From Chamaesiphon sp. (GTDB lineage: Bacteria > Cyanobacteriota > Cyanobacteriia > Cyanobacteriales > Chamaesiphonaceae): a stretch of 64,000 nucleotides of DNA. Both the position numbers and the translations under genes were made by a program. Below the pieces are notes generated by a model. The model searched no databases. It was not told the origin of the DNA and worked only from the letters and a program-made list of their open reading frames with translations. The stretch is taken from assembly GCA_965246715.1 (NCBI GenBank), contig CBDFFH010000020.1:160001-224000 (forward strand). Direction: 5' to 3'. Positions 54,307-64,000 of this stretch are shown here, piece by piece (positions within the stretch are counted from its first letter, which is position 1; the number at the start of each line of letters is the position of its first letter).

Positions 54307-55716
54307 CTACCTCAATCGCGCTTGCACAAAAGTATCAATCCTACTCAATCCCGCTCCCCCTGGTTTAAATCTAAATTGCCACTGAGTCTCCACTAGATCG
54401 ATAAATCCCGCAACAACGCTCGATTTTGGCGTAGTTGCAATTACCGATGTCAACAGATCTATTGCTAGTTCGACATAATAAACCTCACACTGCGATTCGA
54501 TATACTTGCCGTAGCCATCCAGCATCTCGATCGAGATTTGAGTAGTTGCAGGCAACTTGTGGTAGCTAAGATAGAACTCCTGCGCTAACTTAGCAATCTG
54601 CCGATCGTGTCTGTGTCCGATCGTAGTTTGATGGCAGTCTAATTCCAGCCCCGCCTCATCCTGAGTCAATCTCAAGCCATAGAGCAAGAATAAGATCCAA
54701 TCTGCCAATCTTGCCTTTGTTAACTTACGATCGGCTGGAGTTGCGGTTGTGCCTATAAGTGAATTTTTGCCAAGTAAATCCAGTGCTAGTTCTCGCGGTT
54801 CGCAATCTTCGAGCGACACACTCACGCGCGCATCGGCAACAAGATCGCCTAAAGTCCCCAACTCATCATCATTACTCAAAGGTGCATCTAGCGATCGCGG
54901 GATTTGCTGTCGATCGTTCCGAATCATATTGCCCAGATCTGCAAGTAACTCCTTCACTACCTCGCGTTGGCGTAGCCTCTCCCCTGGAGAATCGACAATT
55001 TCTAGATCCGTCACCTGCCTACACTCTTGATATCGAGCTAATAACGCCTCGTAATGAACTGCTTGAGGAGCGTTAGTCACAAATTGGTTGGCTACCACCA
55101 CTTCCTGAAAACATTGGTGCAACAATAGCAATCCTTCCAGCCGCTCTCCCCTTTCTCCCAACTGTTTGAGGCAAGTTTCGAGCTGCGAGGGGCTACAACG
55201 ACTTAATAAGCCCAGATTAGTCCGTTTAAAATCATCTCCTGCTAGCTTTCGCAATTCATCAATCAGGGATTTGCGAAACTTGTTGTGACTATACCGACTC
55301 AAACTCCCATACCAATCTAGCTGCGGCTGAAAATTCCGTAAGAACTTCGATGGGTGGCTGATAATAACCAGACTAATCTGATAGACATCCCGCAATTCCG
55401 TCCCCTGAAAGTGACACTTTAAAAGTTCCACCATGCTAACGAGCCGTACCTTCCGCTCTGAGAATAGGATATGGGAGAGAAAAGCTGTCATCGAGCCACT
55501 TAGGTTCTGCTCTGGCAGAGTGTAATACTGGCGAGCGAGATTCAAATTTTGAACTTCCTCAACCAAAATCCGTGCGGCTGCGAGTATTTGAATCGGTAGA
55601 TATTCATCCGGTATCCGCTGGTAAATATAGCGTCTGAGCCTGGGATCGATCTGCCACCTCAGATATGGATGATGCTCGATCGATTCAGGGATCTGGTAAA
55701 AGTGTTGGCGATCCAT
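54307..55716 (-). CDS. Cyanobacterial sigma-70-like factor with in-frame micro-element
   Basis: W..DPRLRR N-terminus, SLDAPL (region 3) and region 4 HTH LYGLRLTQDEAGLELDCHQTTIGHR; linked to DUF1822/CHAT. Confidence 0.6.
   Translation of the reverse strand: MDRQHFYQIPESIEHHPYLRWQIDPRLRRYIYQRIPDEYLPIQILAAARILVEEVQNLNLARQYYTLPEQNLSGSMTAFLSHILFSERKVRLVSMVELLKCHFQGTELRDVYQISLVIISHPSKFLRNFQPQLDWYGSLSRYSHNKFRKSLIDELRKLAGDDFKRTNLGLLSRCSPSQLETCLKQLGERGERLEGLLLLHQCFQEVVVANQFVTNAPQAVHYEALLARYQECRQVTDLEIVDSPGERLRQREVVKELLADLGNMIRNDRQQIPRSLDAPLSNDDELGTLGDLVADARVSVSLEDCEPRELALDLLGKNSLIGTTATPADRKLTKARLADWILFLLYGLRLTQDEAGLELDCHQTTIGHRHDRQIAKLAQEFYLSYHKLPATTQISIEMLDGYGKYIESQCEVYYVELAIDLLTSVIATTPKSSVVAGFIDLVETQWQFRFKPGGAGLSRIDTFVQARLR
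54967..54990 (-). mobile_element. 24-nt micro-element, in frame
   Basis: CGAT+TCTCCAGGGGAGAGGCTACGCCAA+CG (encodes SPGERLRQ). Confidence 0.8.
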
Positions 55717-58925: not shown

Positions 58926-58962
58926 GTTACAACCCTCATCAGCCTAAAATAACTGATGTCAC
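58926..58962 (-). CRISPR. Solitary 37-nt type I-C-like repeat directly after cas7
   Basis: GTGACATCAGTTATTTTAGGCTGATGAGGGTTGTAAC; hairpin plus 11-nt 3' tail; 17 nt identical to the repeats at 62354 and 62406. Confidence 0.8.
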
Positions 58963-58978
58963 TATGATTTACTCTTAT

Positions 58979-59839
58979 TTAAGCTAACTTATTAATAATT
59001 GGTGGATATTGAGTTTGCAGTCCTGCGATCGCATCACTCAGTCGAGTTAAGATTACACCTTCGGGAGCAGTACTTAAATCGATGCTATGAGTCTGTGTGT
59101 GCTCATCAACATTAACACTGACTAAATTAGAGATCTTATTCAATTGAGCATTACCGTAAGGAGTACTATGTGTCGCCACGACACATTCAATCAAATCCCA
59201 TTCACCCCGCTGTAAACTGGCTGTTTGCATTGCATGGTGCCATAGACAAATTAGCCATTGCCCCATATATTCAGCATCGATAATATTATTACGTTGCTTG
59301 TTAATGCAAGCATTAAATGTTCCTGTACCCTTGGTAACTACCCAATCAATATAAGAAGCATTACCCATCGTGCGATTCCCTTTGGAGTTAGTTGTTGCAC
59401 TGGTGACGGCTTGTTCGATCGGCGAAGGGATATTGATTGAAACAGATGGATAGAGTCGATAAATTCCGCGAAAGCCTGTATCAATTACTTCTTTTTTATC
59501 TTTGCCAAAACTGGCGAATAATCCACCATTGCCACGCCTATCCCAATAATCTCCCATCAGATCGGCTGGAGTCTTTTTATCTTTGATATATTTCTGCTGG
59601 ATATCATCTAAATTATTGCCACTATGATATAAATTACTGACACCATATAATAGTTCCGCCGTTTGGTTAATGCGGTTACTCATACTCGTTGGGGTAGCAT
59701 AAATATGGCTATTGGGAAGCTGACGTGGTGCATTTCCAGCATTGGGATCGCCATTTGGATTACAGATGCGTCCTTCCATAATCATCACGTAGTCATGGCG
59801 GACAGAGGGATTGGTAACAATCGTCGTTGGATTAGACAT
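58979..59839 (-). CDS. cas7: Cas7, type I-C-like (Csd2), divergent
   Basis: RHDY, NPNGDPNAGNAPRQ, RTMG and S..RG motifs; third gene of the cas5-cas8-cas7 operon. Confidence 0.85.
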   Translation of the reverse strand: MSNPTTIVTNPSVRHDYVMIMEGRICNPNGDPNAGNAPRQLPNSHIYATPTSMSNRINQTAELLYGVSNLYHSGNNLDDIQQKYIKDKKTPADLMGDYWDRRGNGGLFASFGKDKKEVIDTGFRGIYRLYPSVSINIPSPIEQAVTSATTNSKGNRTMGNASYIDWVVTKGTGTFNACINKQRNNIIDAEYMGQWLICLWHHAMQTASLQRGEWDLIECVVATHSTPYGNAQLNKISNLVSVNVDEHTQTHSIDLSTAPEGVILTRLSDAIAGLQTQYPPIINKLA

Positions 59840-59893
59840 AGTTGGTAATTATTGAGATAAAGATGATTAGGTATTTTTGTCTGTGGTTGGCAA

Positions 59894-60286
59894 TTATTCG
59901 GATGTTTTTCCGACAGTAGCAGTGCGCCTTGCTTCCTGAAATTGGCTGATTCCCAGAGCTAAGAAAAAGGCTTGTTCGTCAGTCCAGCGTTTAGGTGGAG
60001 AAGCATTGGGGCAATCTTCTCCAAGTTCAGAGAAAGTTTTGTCGTACCAAACAGCTTTATCCGGTCTTGCGGCTAAGTAGGGAATAACTTTGGTGATGAT
60101 TTGGGCAAAGCCCTGTGCTGGAGAACTGAAGAGAGTTTGACGATAAGAATCAAGGGGATCTTTCCACCCTTCTCCTGGTGCCGCACTACGGGCAGCATAA
60201 TAATAAGACATGGTTTTGCAAGCAGCAAAAACTCGTCCGACATGCCATGCAAATAAATTATCTGGTGTTGTTTCTGGTTTCATCAT
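59894..60286 (-). CDS. cas11: Putative internally translated Cas11 (130 aa) within cas8c
   Basis: GAAGG RBS 7 nt before an in-frame ATGATG that precedes the ..N..AWHVGRVFA helical domain. Confidence 0.6.
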   Translation of the reverse strand: MMKPETTPDNLFAWHVGRVFAACKTMSYYYAARSAAPGEGWKDPLDSYRQTLFSSPAQGFAQIITKVIPYLAARPDKAVWYDKTFSELGEDCPNASPPKRWTDEQAFFLALGISQFQEARRTATVGKTSE

Positions 60287-61579
60287 TCGATCGCCTTCTA
60301 TAAAATTAGGGGAAAGCCAAGCTAAATAAGCAATTTGTGCCCATTCTCGGTTTGATTTTTTTGCGTTGGGGTTGGGAACACCCTCAATTTTGAGCCGATG
60401 AATAACACTGTTGGTAATTGCTTGGGGCGGCAAATGACCGTTAATCATGGCTTCAAAAATCTGTTCGTTAGCTTTGGTAACTGCTTGTTTGCTGCTACCT
60501 TCAGCCACTGTTAACGCACCAAACACCCAATAAGGCTTGGAAATTGTCAGATAACGTCGCTGTTGCTGATGGTAAAAAAGCAGATTATTCAGGAGTTTTA
60601 GAATAGATAGATCGGTTATCTGTCCGATTGCAGCCCGTCCCTTACCACTACCACCAATCCCAATATAGCCACAAGCAATTTTTAGATCTTCTGGTATTTT
60701 TCCAATACTTTTGGCTCCAATATTGACTAAATTGATAATGTCTTCCAATGCTTGAACGGGATCTAAATCGGCGGCTCCATCCGAACCAAAAAAAGCGGCA
60801 ATCTCCTTACCTGCTTCACTAATTGCTGCCATCTCTGGCAATGCCCCCCAGACCCAATAAAGACCGCCTCCTAGCCAGATGTTATGACCTTTGGCTTCTA
60901 GTAACTCCGTATATCGCTGAGTTGCAATTACAGCTTTTTCCGCTGAGATGTTGAGCGCAATTTTTTCATGTTGTCCCCACGAACGAAACATATCATCGTT
61001 GCATCCTAGCAGCGGAGCCGCTAATTTCTTCGAGTGGATTCTGGGTAAAGTTCCTAGCAAATTTCCATCACCATTACCGATCGCCCGTTCCAAAGTTTGA
61101 GCTGCATGAACAGATCGAATTGCGGGTAGATCGTGGATATAAGTCCCGTCTTCTAGTCGCCAGACAATACGCCCATTTTCGATCGCGGTAATATCTGCTT
61201 TCGGTTTTTCAGCGATTTGTCGCTCTAATTCTAGTGGACGATCTGACTGCATCCAATCGACGATCCATTGTAACTCTGGAACTTCTAGACAGCGTTGCTT
61301 CAAAGCTTCAACCATCGCCGCAAAAGCTTGGGGCTTGCGAGTCGGATGGTAATAATCTAATTTGTCCGACCCGACAATTGGTGCAATCCCCGAAGTGCGG
61401 GGCAGATCTGGCAACCAAAAGCGTTTACGGGTTTTGTTATCTGTTTCCAGTGGCATTAGATCTGCGGCGGAACCAATTTGTCCATTAGCTCCAAGTAGAA
61501 TTTCAATGCCCACATCCATTGGCGTATAGCCATAGGGACGATCGATTCCCGTCGGAGAGACAACTGAATTAATTTGCAT
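59894..61579 (-). CDS. cas8c: Cas8c-like (Csd1) large subunit
   Basis: Lies between cas5 and cas7; RTSGIAP..DK.DY N-terminal motif and C-terminal GRVFA..DEQAFFLALG; start MQINS overlaps the cas5 stop. Confidence 0.75.
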   Translation of the reverse strand: MQINSVVSPTGIDRPYGYTPMDVGIEILLGANGQIGSAADLMPLETDNKTRKRFWLPDLPRTSGIAPIVGSDKLDYYHPTRKPQAFAAMVEALKQRCLEVPELQWIVDWMQSDRPLELERQIAEKPKADITAIENGRIVWRLEDGTYIHDLPAIRSVHAAQTLERAIGNGDGNLLGTLPRIHSKKLAAPLLGCNDDMFRSWGQHEKIALNISAEKAVIATQRYTELLEAKGHNIWLGGGLYWVWGALPEMAAISEAGKEIAAFFGSDGAADLDPVQALEDIINLVNIGAKSIGKIPEDLKIACGYIGIGGSGKGRAAIGQITDLSILKLLNNLLFYHQQQRRYLTISKPYWVFGALTVAEGSSKQAVTKANEQIFEAMINGHLPPQAITNSVIHRLKIEGVPNPNAKKSNREWAQIAYLAWLSPNFIEGDRMMKPETTPDNLFAWHVGRVFAACKTMSYYYAARSAAPGEGWKDPLDSYRQTLFSSPAQGFAQIITKVIPYLAARPDKAVWYDKTFSELGEDCPNASPPKRWTDEQAFFLALGISQFQEARRTATVGKTSE

Positions 61580-62246
61580 AGCCGCCTTCTCCACGTCGGG
61601 GATATGCCGGAACTGTGACCACTCCATCAATTATCTTGGCTTCAAACATCACTGCTGCGCCCGTGACTCGTTCCATCGGTCGATCGGCGAGCATTGCTGT
61701 TGTTCGACGGGCAAATGTCTTCTTGACAGGTTTAGAGGTGGGTTCCCAAGTCCAATAGTGAGGCATTCTCCCTAGACTCATTTGTTTTATATCGATCGGT
61801 GCTGGACTAACAGCATCCTTGGCTAGTAGCTCTACCGTGGCAGGGTAATCACTGATGCCCATGCTAGGTTGATAATAGTGTTGTCCGCTCAGGAGTCTTC
61901 GAGCTAGTTGACCGATTCGTTCCTTCGAGTCAACTTCGCTGTCACAGTCTAGCCAGAAATCCACTAAATATTTTGGTTCTACGAGTAGCTCATAAGTTCT
62001 TAGCCAGGGATCGCCCGTTTGGTGATTGAGTTGGGTGACAGTCTCAGTTGTGTAGGAGATCGGATTTAATATAGAAATCGATTTGACCTGAACTGACTGA
62101 CCTGGATGCCAATAAACTGCATTAATTATTCCTTCCACTGCGGTGGGGGTAATAATCGGGTATGTACTCGGTTCGCCTGGATTACCAGGTCTTTGAAAGT
62201 GCCCAAGTGGAGCACTAATGATTACTTTCAAACGACTCACTCCCAT
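61569..62246 (-). CDS. cas5: Cas5, type I-C-like (Cas5d)
   Basis: GHFQRP...E..TYPIITPTAVEGIINAVYWHP, I.ILNPI, YYQPSMG and LGRM. Confidence 0.85.
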   Translation of the reverse strand: MGVSRLKVIISAPLGHFQRPGNPGEPSTYPIITPTAVEGIINAVYWHPGQSVQVKSISILNPISYTTETVTQLNHQTGDPWLRTYELLVEPKYLVDFWLDCDSEVDSKERIGQLARRLLSGQHYYQPSMGISDYPATVELLAKDAVSPAPIDIKQMSLGRMPHYWTWEPTSKPVKKTFARRTTAMLADRPMERVTGAAVMFEAKIIDGVVTVPAYPRRGEGGYAN

Positions 62247-62268
62247 GCACTAATTTGACTTCTATCTA

Positions 62269-62297
62269 ATATTAGCGATATCATTTGAAAATAGCAA
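62269..62297 (-). promoter_or_regulatory. Predicted sigma-70 promoter of the cas5-8-7 operon
   Basis: TTGCTA-N17-TAATAT on minus, ending 22 nt upstream of the cas5 ATG. Confidence 0.6.
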
Positions 62298-62298
62298 C

Positions 62299-62333
62299 AA
62301 AAAACATCACTCAGTTTAATGAATGATGTTTTT
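62299..62333 (-). terminator. Intrinsic terminator closing the mini-array transcript
   Basis: AAAAACATCATTCA-TTAAAC-TGAGTGATGTTTTTT. Confidence 0.7.
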
Positions 62334-62442
62334 ATGCTCGCCAGTATTAGATATTTACAACCCTCATCAGCTTTTCAAGGCTGGTGTCATCTCTCAATTG
62401 TAGATCTTACAACCCTCATCAGCCCCGAAAAAATGGTGTCAC
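62334..62442 (-). CRISPR. Mini-array: repeat (62406-62442), 15-nt spacer, repeat (62354-62390), about 20-nt guide
   Basis: Two 37-nt repeats ending GCTGATGAGGGTTGTAA(G/A); guides ATCTACAATTGAGAG and TATCTAATACTGGCGAGCAT. Confidence 0.85.
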
Positions 62443-62490
62443 TGTAGCTCGTCTATAACATCTTACCTACCATTCTCTTACGATCTCAAT

Positions 62491-64000
62491 ATGATTCTCA
62501 CACCTCTAGCTCGTCCGAATCAACCACTGTTGGCACACTTACTCGGAGTCGGTCATCATACTGGTCGATTATGCTCTTCCCAATCGGATTGGGCAAGGTT
62601 AATTGGATTGCTACACGATTATGGTAAATATCGCCCTGAATGGGTAGAGGGGATAAATGCAATTGCCAATGGGGAAAATCAGGACAAGCTTCCTGATCAT
62701 GCTGTCGAAGGTGCGCTGTATCTAATCGAGATGTTTCCAGATCGATCTCATTTTAAGGTGAGGGCGTTAGCATTATTAATTGCTGCTCACCACGGTGGTC
62801 TGGGGGATCTGAAGCCAAGCATGGATTGGTTAGCAGGAAAGGATTCTGCTCGTCCGCTCCCAGATATGGATCGTTGTCAATGGAAGATTGATGATAAGTA
62901 TTTAGTTGAAGTAAAAAAGACGATCGCTGTTGCTAAATATAGTGATTTAGATACTTGGATGCCTCCTAATGACTATCGTACCGCTCAACGACTGCGATTT
63001 TTGTATGGTGCGCTAATTGCTGCCGATCGACAGGATGCAGCGATGAGTGATGGATGGAAACCTGCTACATATTGCTCGATGACAACACTGGCAGATAAAT
63101 TGGCTACTTGGTATGAATCGAAATTTAGCCAGCCTGAAAATCCCTTGGATAGATTGCGGGGTGATTTTTATACTGAGTGCCGGAAGGCAGCAAAGCTTGA
63201 ACCAGGCTGGTTATCAGTGCGTGGGCCATGTGGTATATCCAAGACTTGGAGCGTGATGCAAATGGCTCTCGATCGTGCAGCCCAATGGGATAAACAAAAG
63301 GTGATTTATTGTGTGCCTTGGACGGCAATTTTAGGGCAGTCTTACAACCAGTACCAGGAGGTATTAGGTGCTGATAATGTTCTCGGACACTGGAGTACGT
63401 TAGTCGATCCTAAAACTCAAGATCCTGAGCAACTTCGTAACTCTCGACAGTGGTGGGAAACTCCCGTTATCGCTACGACAATGGTGCAACTGTTTGATGT
63501 GTTACTAGGATCTAGAGCGCGGACGGCGCAACGGATGCCCAGTTTGCAAAATGCTGTGATTGTCTTGGATGAAGTGCAGGGATTACCGAATGAGCTACTC
63601 ATTACTTGCATTAAAGTACTCGACCAGCTAGTTCAAGACCACGGAGTAACGATTATCCTGTCTACGGCAACTATGCCAGATTACGCACCTTTGGGCATTA
63701 ACCCGATCGAAGCACTTCCTCAGACTAAAGTTGATGAATATTTTGAGGGAACTAAACGGGTCGAATATCGATGGGCTGAGGAACCCCTAACATGGGAATC
63801 CATCGCCGCTGAAATCGTCCAATCTCAAAAAAGTAGCACCCTGATTGTGACAAATACTGTGGCTGCTTGTGATGATGTTTATACTGTTATGCAGTCTCTG
63901 CCAAATCATCGAGTCTATAAATATACTGCAAGTATGTCTCCTGCCCATCGTGCTGTGGTCTTGGCAGAGATTAAGGCAGCGGTTAATGAAGCAAAAGAAG
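62491..64000 (+). CDS. cas3: Cas3 (HD nuclease + SF2 helicase), runs off window; not in ORF track
   Basis: Open frame from ATG 62491: LLAHL, LLHDYGK, DHA, AHHG, AADRQDA, Walker A GPCGISKT, VIATTMVQ, VLDEVQ, LSTATMP and IVTNTV. Confidence 0.9.
   Translation, partial: MILTPLARPNQPLLAHLLGVGHHTGRLCSSQSDWARLIGLLHDYGKYRPEWVEGINAIANGENQDKLPDHAVEGALYLIEMFPDRSHFKVRALALLIAAHHGGLGDLKPSMDWLAGKDSARPLPDMDRCQWKIDDKYLVEVKKTIAVAKYSDLDTWMPPNDYRTAQRLRFLYGALIAADRQDAAMSDGWKPATYCSMTTLADKLATWYESKFSQPENPLDRLRGDFYTECRKAAKLEPGWLSVRGPCGISKTWSVMQMALDRAAQWDKQKVIYCVPWTAILGQSYNQYQEVLGADNVLGHWSTLVDPKTQDPEQLRNSRQWWETPVIATTMVQLFDVLLGSRARTAQRMPSLQNAVIVLDEVQGLPNELLITCIKVLDQLVQDHGVTIILSTATMPDYAPLGINPIEALPQTKVDEYFEGTKRVEYRWAEEPLTWESIAAEIVQSQKSSTLIVTNTVAACDDVYTVMQSLPNHRVYKYTASMSPAHRAVVLAEIKAAVNEAKE

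Follow-up and report, generated by a model that had tools for sequence, protein, structure and literature searches.

A divergent type I-C CRISPR-Cas locus with a long array, a CreR-like guide and no adaptation genes on a likely conjugative plasmid of Chamaesiphon

Type I-C CRISPR-Cas systems use TTC as protospacer-adjacent motif (PAM; PMC7913775), and CreR-like regulatory elements have been found among them by manual search (Liu et al., bioRxiv 10.1101/2023.03.10.532045). According to Table 1 of Shmakov et al. (PMC10120712), 7% of I-C loci contain mini-arrays. Phage guides directed against loci of this type are reported (bioRxiv 10.1101/2024.10.29.618823), and the main text of the 2025 classification names I-C once, for a transposon variant (PMC12669027). 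Here, we describe a cyanobacterial I-C locus at the end of a window of 64,000 nucleotides (nt) from Chamaesiphon sp. (assembly GCA_965246715.1). The window is the whole stretch of DNA that was analysed, positions 160,001-224,000 of contig CBDFFH010000020.1 (C20), which belongs to a 6.1-Mb genome of 55 contigs with a completeness of 99.79%.

We put at about 75% the probability that this locus is a divergent type I-C system with an array and without cas1, cas2 and cas4, likely carried by a conjugative plasmid, likely repressing itself through a CreR-like guide, and likely receiving its spacers through the Cas4-Cas1-Cas2 proteins of other hosts.

Cas proteins, array and leader

The genes and layout proposed in a sequence-only reading of the window, with cas5-cas8c-cas7 on the minus strand and cas3 head-to-head on the plus strand, were borne out by profile searches (Table 1), and so was the view that the Cascade proteins are divergent. 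The best profiles of the Cas proteins are mostly type I-C (NCBIfam, PADLOC). Cas5, Cas8c and Cas7 fall far under the NCBIfam I-C cut-offs (47.6 against 85, 63 against 218.65 and 54.7 against 182.25 bits, respectively), so that annotation pipelines may miss the clade. Cas8c (Csd1) matches PF09709 with 84.9 bits (cut-off 27) and the PADLOC Cas8c profile, and lies under the cut-off of TIGR01863; the best NCBIfam profile of Cas7 is TIGR02589, the top profile matches of Cas5 are to Cas5c, and its best solved-structure match is the Cas5 chain 8g9t_N (E 3.8e-12). In type I-C, Cas11 is translated from an internal start. The corresponding Met450 of Cas8c is nearly invariant across 30 aligned homologs, and the Cas11c piece predicted from it has no relevant match among PDB sequences. 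Between the start of cas3 and the likely start of cas5, which lies downstream of it, the distance is 259 nt, and no open reading frame (ORF) that could be a cas6 remains between the mapped genes. The system is a divergent type I-C CRISPR-Cas interference system.

The same reading had seen no conventional array, which proved to be an artefact of the window edge. An array of 52 repeats of 37 nt lies on the plus strand at C20:224,798-228,518, its first repeat 798 nt past the window end. Its orientation is opposite to that of three lone repeats within the window (R1-R3, Table 1), 49 of its repeats are identical to the modal repeat, and its spacers measure 31-43 nt; the repeat folds with an 11-nt 3' tail. 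Two further decayed repeats lie outside the window, in the array region beyond cas3. No array spacer has a full-length self-target in the genome.

A leader between cas3 and the array carries motifs at -168/169, -136/137, -56 and -28 from the first repeat, in phase with canonical I-C leaders. Against 300 shuffles, its similarity to the leaders of canonical I-C operons, complete with cas4-cas1-cas2, in two related genomes, G421 (same genus, three contigs) and G431, reaches z-scores of 10.4 and 12.5, compared with 0.2 for the leader of the type I-MYXAN system present in this genome. The first leader motif shares sequence with the final codons of cas3 (L001:9613-9641, C20:224,613-224,641). Since cas3 ends differently in the genome that holds the related locus L012, the present C-terminus of Cas3 likely arose in a rearrangement. 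A stretch of about 0.9 kb that is not array sequence interrupts the array of locus L011, with an intact repeat on either side (L011:4829-5785), and an array of a sister system in G431 (L040, G431:C46) is broken by a two-ORF insertion, which we take to resemble an IS200/IS605 tnpA-tnpB pair.

The sequence-only reading had made much depend on whether an array and an adaptation module lie beyond cas3 and whether the proteins nest within ordinary I-C clades. The array is there, no adaptation module accompanies it, and Cas7 sides with I-C, in a group on a long branch. This comes from a quick tree with 76 rows (62 of 119 matches, picked among the longer ones, and 14 from our loci, with two I-B outgroup rows), where the clade forms one 10-row group (Shimodaira-Hasegawa-like approximate likelihood ratio support, SH-aLRT, 99) among I-C rows, apart from the two I-B rows and not adjacent to the canonical I-C of the hosts themselves. 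Among named loci, those closest to the present one are from cyanobacteria: L011 (Chamaesiphon sp., with proteins 78-91% identical) and L012 (Alkalinema sp., 51-62%). No relatives of Cas8c were found at E 1e-20 in 400 other genomes sampled across the phylum, nor any of Cas7 or Cas8c in IMG/VR. A literature search of partial coverage gave no account of the clade or of the Walker A form of its Cas3; the family may already be covered by Liu et al. (Fig. S7) and by the locus lists in the supplement of Shmakov et al.

The short guide upstream of cas5

Type I-C guides skip every sixth position. The short guide that follows the degenerate repeat R2 matches window positions 62263-62278, behind TTC, at guide positions 1-9, 11 and 13-16. 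Counted with the PAM, this target occupies the interval from 29 to 47 nt upstream of the likely cas5 start, over a -10-like hexamer that was assigned by eye. When every sixth position is left out of the scoring, as stated for I-F1 (PMC10120712), the target ranks at the top of 204,578 TTC sites genome-wide and is the sole one with a full seed and at least 13 of 14 counted positions. None of 200,000 shuffled guides matched the intergenic region equally well. Guide positions 5-18 also match 14 nt at 55523-55536 of the window; this site was rejected, as it has neither seed nor PAM.

Of nine loci collected, L008 and L009 were not scored for the guide, as their contigs stop short of this stretch. 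Six of the remaining seven carry a degenerate repeat and a guide, with the TTC-flanked target upstream of cas5. The counted positions are paired at 13 of 15 in the window, L007, L010, L011 and G421, and at 14 of 15 in L012. Compensatory changes of guide and target occur at position 2 in L007 and at position 4 in L011, and L012 has an unrelated guide on the other strand that shows mismatches only at positions 6 and 12 within nt 1-15. Continuous guide pairing ends at nt 15-16 in all six loci. It is likely, judging from these pairings, that the guide makes Cascade repress the promoter of its own cas5-cas8c-cas7 operon, which fits CreR autorepression. The earlier suggestion of RNA-guided regulation is upheld in that the target of the short guide is the upstream region of the system's own cas5.

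As first noted from the window alone, the three diverged lone repeats share an exact 17-nt block, which is present exactly three times in the genome. The 3' end of R2 is kept in relatives; before the same guide, some relatives have only an R1-like repeat and others only an R2-like one. Two short guides had been proposed, and the one of 20 nt stands with its TTC-flanked target. The 15-nt unit between R1 and R2 fared less well as a guide: it has no standout target among about 204,600 TTC sites and is missing from related-strain contigs. Its TACAAT element aligns just before the single repeat in G421 and L007, both of which lack R1. In contigs of runs X4, X7 and X10, the guide-side repeat end passes straight into R1-like sequence, and one X15 contig skips exactly the 52 nt made up of the 15-nt unit and a repeat. 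In view of the position of TACAAT in relatives and the contigs without the unit, the 15-nt unit is dispensable and likely a promoter piece rather than a guide, with TACAAT as the -10 box of the R2 transcript.

R3 folds into a canonical hairpin with an 11-nt tail. The sequence after it has no convincing target among the same TTC sites; a degenerate counterpart of R3 occupies the same place in G421, where the following sequence is not conserved. The head-to-head layout is common to L007, L010, L011 and G421. In L012 and G431, leader and array directly follow cas7, and cas3 comes after an array end on another contig. The arrangement in these two suggests that the older layout was likely cas5-cas8c-cas7-array-cas3, and R3 is likely a relic of the old array site after cas7.

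Table 1. Mapped features of the locus (window positions, except where C20 is given).
Feature	Position	Strand	Basis or remark
R3, lone repeat directly after cas7	58926..58962	-	8 mismatches to array repeat
cas7c, divergent	58979..59839	-	profile matches, PADLOC, quick tree
cas8c	59894..61579	-	open frame from 61630, likely start 61579; profile matches, PADLOC
Cas11c, predicted, internal start within cas8c	59894..60283	-	AG-rich stretch, then ATG
cas5c	61569..62231	-	likely TTG start at 62231; profile and structure-sequence matches
TTC PAM (62260-62262) and 16-nt target	62260..62278	+	guide match
Putative cas5 operon promoter (TTGCTA, 17 nt, TAATAT)	62269..62297	-	by eye; kept in relatives; target overlaps
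Terminator-like hairpin closing the guide	62300..62333	-	1 found against 0.1 in shuffles; kept in relatives
CreR-like guide, about 20 nt	62334..62353	-	directly after R2
R2, degenerate repeat, would supply 11-nt guide handle	62354..62390	-	10 mismatches to array repeat
15-nt unit with TACAAT element	62391..62405	-	alignment with relatives
R1, second degenerate repeat	62406..62442	-	4 mismatches to array repeat
cas3, 716 aa	62491 onward	+	cut by window end; ends 641 nt further, at C20:224,641
Leader	about C20:224,613-224,797		between cas3 and array; motif comparison

Spacer gain, plasmid context and rival explanations

The locus contains no cas1, cas2 or cas4, as had been read from the window; the only copies in the genome are on contig C34, in the type I-MYXAN system. 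None was found in any related locus with the I-MYXAN proteins as queries, nor in the present locus when this genome was searched with I-C queries. The C34 system (L003:6127-17900) is complete, with its own repeat, an array of about 35 repeats and a Cas4-Cas1 fusion. It has a lone repeat after cas5 at about L003:12480, and the regulator upstream of the system is presumably WYL-like. Cas1c passes its cut-off in 15 of 39 genomes of the family. The G421 array shares only trailer spacers with the array described here, which indicates that the arrays diverged without cas1 in cis, and the phasing of the leader with the canonical I-C leaders of relatives makes acquisition in trans likely. New spacers are thus likely written in trans by the canonical I-C Cas4-Cas1-Cas2 of other hosts. 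This genome yielded no Cas1c, and in the present host the array is therefore likely static.

The location on a plasmid that had been supposed for the locus gains support from the rest of the contig. In a scan of 13 ORFs chosen by eye, ten of which have a Pfam match, C20 was seen to carry a MobA/VirD2 relaxase, ParA, ParB, an actin-like protein, DnaB, an integrase and a type IV secretion system (T4SS) coupling protein. There is no tRNA on C20. The orthologous locus in G421 is on a second replicon (a contig of 446,651 nt), with 86-92% DNA identity that extends over the neighbours as far as C20 reaches. Elsewhere on C20, three 20-kb pieces showed no more than scattered matches to G421, mostly on its largest contig. 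L007 adjoins actin-like and Mob genes; L011 and L012 sit among ordinary-looking genes, so not every copy is evidently on a plasmid. C20 itself is likely a conjugative plasmid on the strength of its gene content. An I-C CRISPR-associated transposon, with Tn7-like tns/tniQ genes next to a Cascade without Cas3, is not indicated: Tn7 families are absent from the scanned neighbouring ORFs, which are part of those on the contig, and cas3 is full length.

Spacer targets were sought with the array in 121 genomes (two candidates scored per genome) and with three array pieces in the 39 family genomes. Spacer 50 matches a type I-B cas7 in G423 (L028:1498) with three mismatches and TTC, so that one CRISPR system is aimed at another. 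Spacer 51 matches homologs, in G290 and G414, of a 1501-aa gene adjacent to the array, with five mismatches and TTC in each case; this homology was read from translations. The spacer 51 site of this genome itself has nine mismatches and TTG. TTC is present at three of the four credible protospacer sites. Five loci with weak spacer matches were dropped, as they have at least nine mismatches, and the array has no match among 50,697 phage and 72,556 plasmid records. The spacers lend thin support to competition between elements, and phage targets may be unsampled; plasmid competition, as proposed earlier, draws modest support from these two old spacers.

A 1789-aa ORF in G421 (L037:6026-11392) is split here into ORFs of 341 and 1501 aa (L005:435-5805, C20 about 229.4-234.8 kb). 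The 1501-aa ORF has a DFDGD motif and resembles RdRP-domain (PF05183) clusters in Atlas with a score of 0.93; its product may be a two-barrel RNA polymerase of a conjugative element. Only G421 has a 755-aa ORF between guide and cas3 (L037:15499-17766), with no Pfam match and with Atlas neighbours that are unnamed or NERD-like; it is possibly defence cargo. The second replicon of G421 also carries a Piwi-domain (prokaryotic Argonaute-like) gene about 20 kb from the array (L047:9268-11484), and a group II intron reverse transcriptase/maturase is found among conjugation-like genes at L061:16175-17983.

In the mechanism that we propose, Cas5c would cut at the repeat hairpin and leave an 11-nt handle, and Cascade with the 20-nt guide would bind the TTC-flanked site over the -10 region. 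Because pairing stops at nt 15-16, which we infer to be too short for Cas3 recruitment, transcription would be blocked without cutting. Repression would ease when CRISPR RNAs (crRNAs) from the array are abundant or Cascade is titrated. The array crRNAs would direct Cascade and Cas3 at incoming elements, including related conjugative elements, and spacers would be added only in hosts with Cas1c.

Several observations weigh against this account. Tyr, Lys and His are the catalytic residues of Cas5; in our alignment the Tyr is kept, and the Lys-His pair reads Glu-Arg. Cas5c may still be the processing subunit, given that the canonical Cas5c of G421 also lacks that His in the same alignment. An 11-nt 3' tail, of the length of the handle predicted from the window, is present in the folds of the array repeat and of R3, but the lowest-energy structures of R1, R2 and the L011 repeat are not the canonical hairpin. 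The putative cas5 promoter falls under the threshold of the promoter scan and was not called. In L010, on a low-coverage contig, the seed is mismatched at position 4; no such guide is seen within 2.9 kb upstream of cas5 in the G431 sister system; and since five of the six loci are close kin, the covariation amounts to about three independent observations. Credible targets were obtained for two of the 52 spacers, both old and with 3-5 mismatches, and one L011 spacer matches a site in G422 with ATC rather than TTC. The cas7 of the clade is present in four of the 39 family genomes, two of which have Cas1c; in the other two, including this genome, none was found.

The glycine before the lysine of a P-loop is near-invariant. 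The Walker A of this Cas3 reads GPCGISKT. All 33 clade proteins that extend over the motif have CGISKT (identity 52-100%; a 34th is without this part), as against GxGKT in all 21 matches at a greater distance. Such a Cas3, with Ser in place of Gly before the Walker A Lys, might be weakened as a helicase and nick or silence its targets instead of degrading them over long distances, in the manner of type IV-A3 in plasmid competition, to which the ecology of the locus (plasmid, no adaptation genes, leader mimicry) also corresponds. However, the Walker A Lys-Thr, motifs Ia, II, III and VI and the HD residues are all conserved, which argues for a working ATPase, and the sister system in G431 reads GPCGVGKT. 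The protein scores 413.8 bits with the PADLOC Cas3c profile. We regard a weakened helicase as an unlikely, if arguable, explanation. A wider picture is equally tentative, in which a cyanobacterial I-C plasmid weapon resembling IV-A3 would borrow Cas1c by means of a leader that mimics those of hosts, be tuned by its CreR-like guide and hit rival conjugative elements as well as other cas genes, its Cas3 nicking or silencing them. The locus showed neither the DinG helicase nor the Csf1 of type IV-A3; its proteins match Cas3 and Cas8c profiles instead.

The remaining alternatives concern the source of the spacers and the purpose of the guide. That the array is served by the resident I-MYXAN Cas4/1-Cas2, or by a cas1c missing from the draft assembly, would agree with the I-MYXAN gene being the sole Cas1 that this genome yielded, with the five bases that both repeats have in common at their start and with the 55 contigs of the assembly. 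Against it stand the lack of leader similarity, the I-C TTC at the protospacers, the high completeness and the outcome of a search with the Cas1c of G421, which found only the C34 gene; we hold it to be improbable. The guide might also act, besides repressing cas5, as the antitoxin of a CreTA-like addiction module that protects the plasmid or the cas genes. On the plus strand, a promoter-like site at 62255-62284 lies across the target, as in the divergent promoters described for creTA of H. hispanica, and G421 has its 755-aa ORF between guide and cas3. But between target and hairpin we see neither a toxin ORF nor a small translated unit, though a small RNA toxin could escape notice there, the -35 box of the plus-strand promoter is not preserved in L011, and the 755-aa ORF is neither found in this genome nor adjacent to the target. 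For addiction, which the sequence-only reading had offered as one role, no toxin gene was found, and we consider it distinctly improbable. The same reading had taken Cascade to be repurposed for regulation or addiction, with adaptive immunity given up. The want of cas1, cas2 and cas4 in cis and the regulatory-type guide agree with this, yet a 52-repeat array with spacers of normal length, a conserved leader, strain-specific spacers and intact HD residues make it very improbable.

Comparison with known systems

As in the CreR and regulatory mini-arrays described, a degenerate repeat and a short guide lie between cas3 and the Cascade genes and are transcribed away from cas3, and the guide has a partial match, with a cognate PAM near the Cascade promoter and mismatches at every sixth base. 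Differences are that the CreR experiments considered here concern I-B, I-E, I-F1 and V-A rather than I-C, and that a terminator hairpin closes the present guide in place of a second repeat (as in V-A CreR, bioRxiv 10.1101/2024.10.29.618823). The covariation seen here extends across one clade.

With canonical I-C (Dvulg), the locus shares cas3, cas5c, cas8c and cas7c, an apparent absence of cas6, a hairpin repeat with an 11-nt tail and the TTC PAM. It differs in lacking cas4, cas1 and cas2 in all loci seen, in a cas3 that is separate and, in the closest loci, reversed, in Cascade proteins far under the family cut-offs and in the clade-wide Walker A change. The I-C systems borne by pKLC102 in P. 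aeruginosa are likewise carried by a conjugative element; in some of them cas1 is broken, and still their spacers differ (PMC7913775).

The locus offers a natural test case, an I-C CreR-like guide with covariation and a leader that predicts which host integrase serves an array without cas1, in a compact four-gene Cascade-Cas3 system with an unusual conserved P-loop. Should Cas3 be weak as a helicase, it would represent a type I effector that nicks or silences naturally.

Type IV-A3 systems (Benz et al., bioRxiv 10.1101/2023.06.23.546257) are described on large conjugative plasmids, with no adaptation module and a part in plasmid competition, and their leader resembles that of a host system whose Cas1-Cas2 adds spacers in trans. 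They thereby provide the precedent for the trans acquisition that we propose. The present locus differs from them in having Cas8c and an HD-nuclease Cas3 instead of DinG, and its donor would be I-C, not I-E. Every part has a precedent, in CreR, in mobile I-C systems and in spacer acquisition in trans, and the locus is not a new kind of system.

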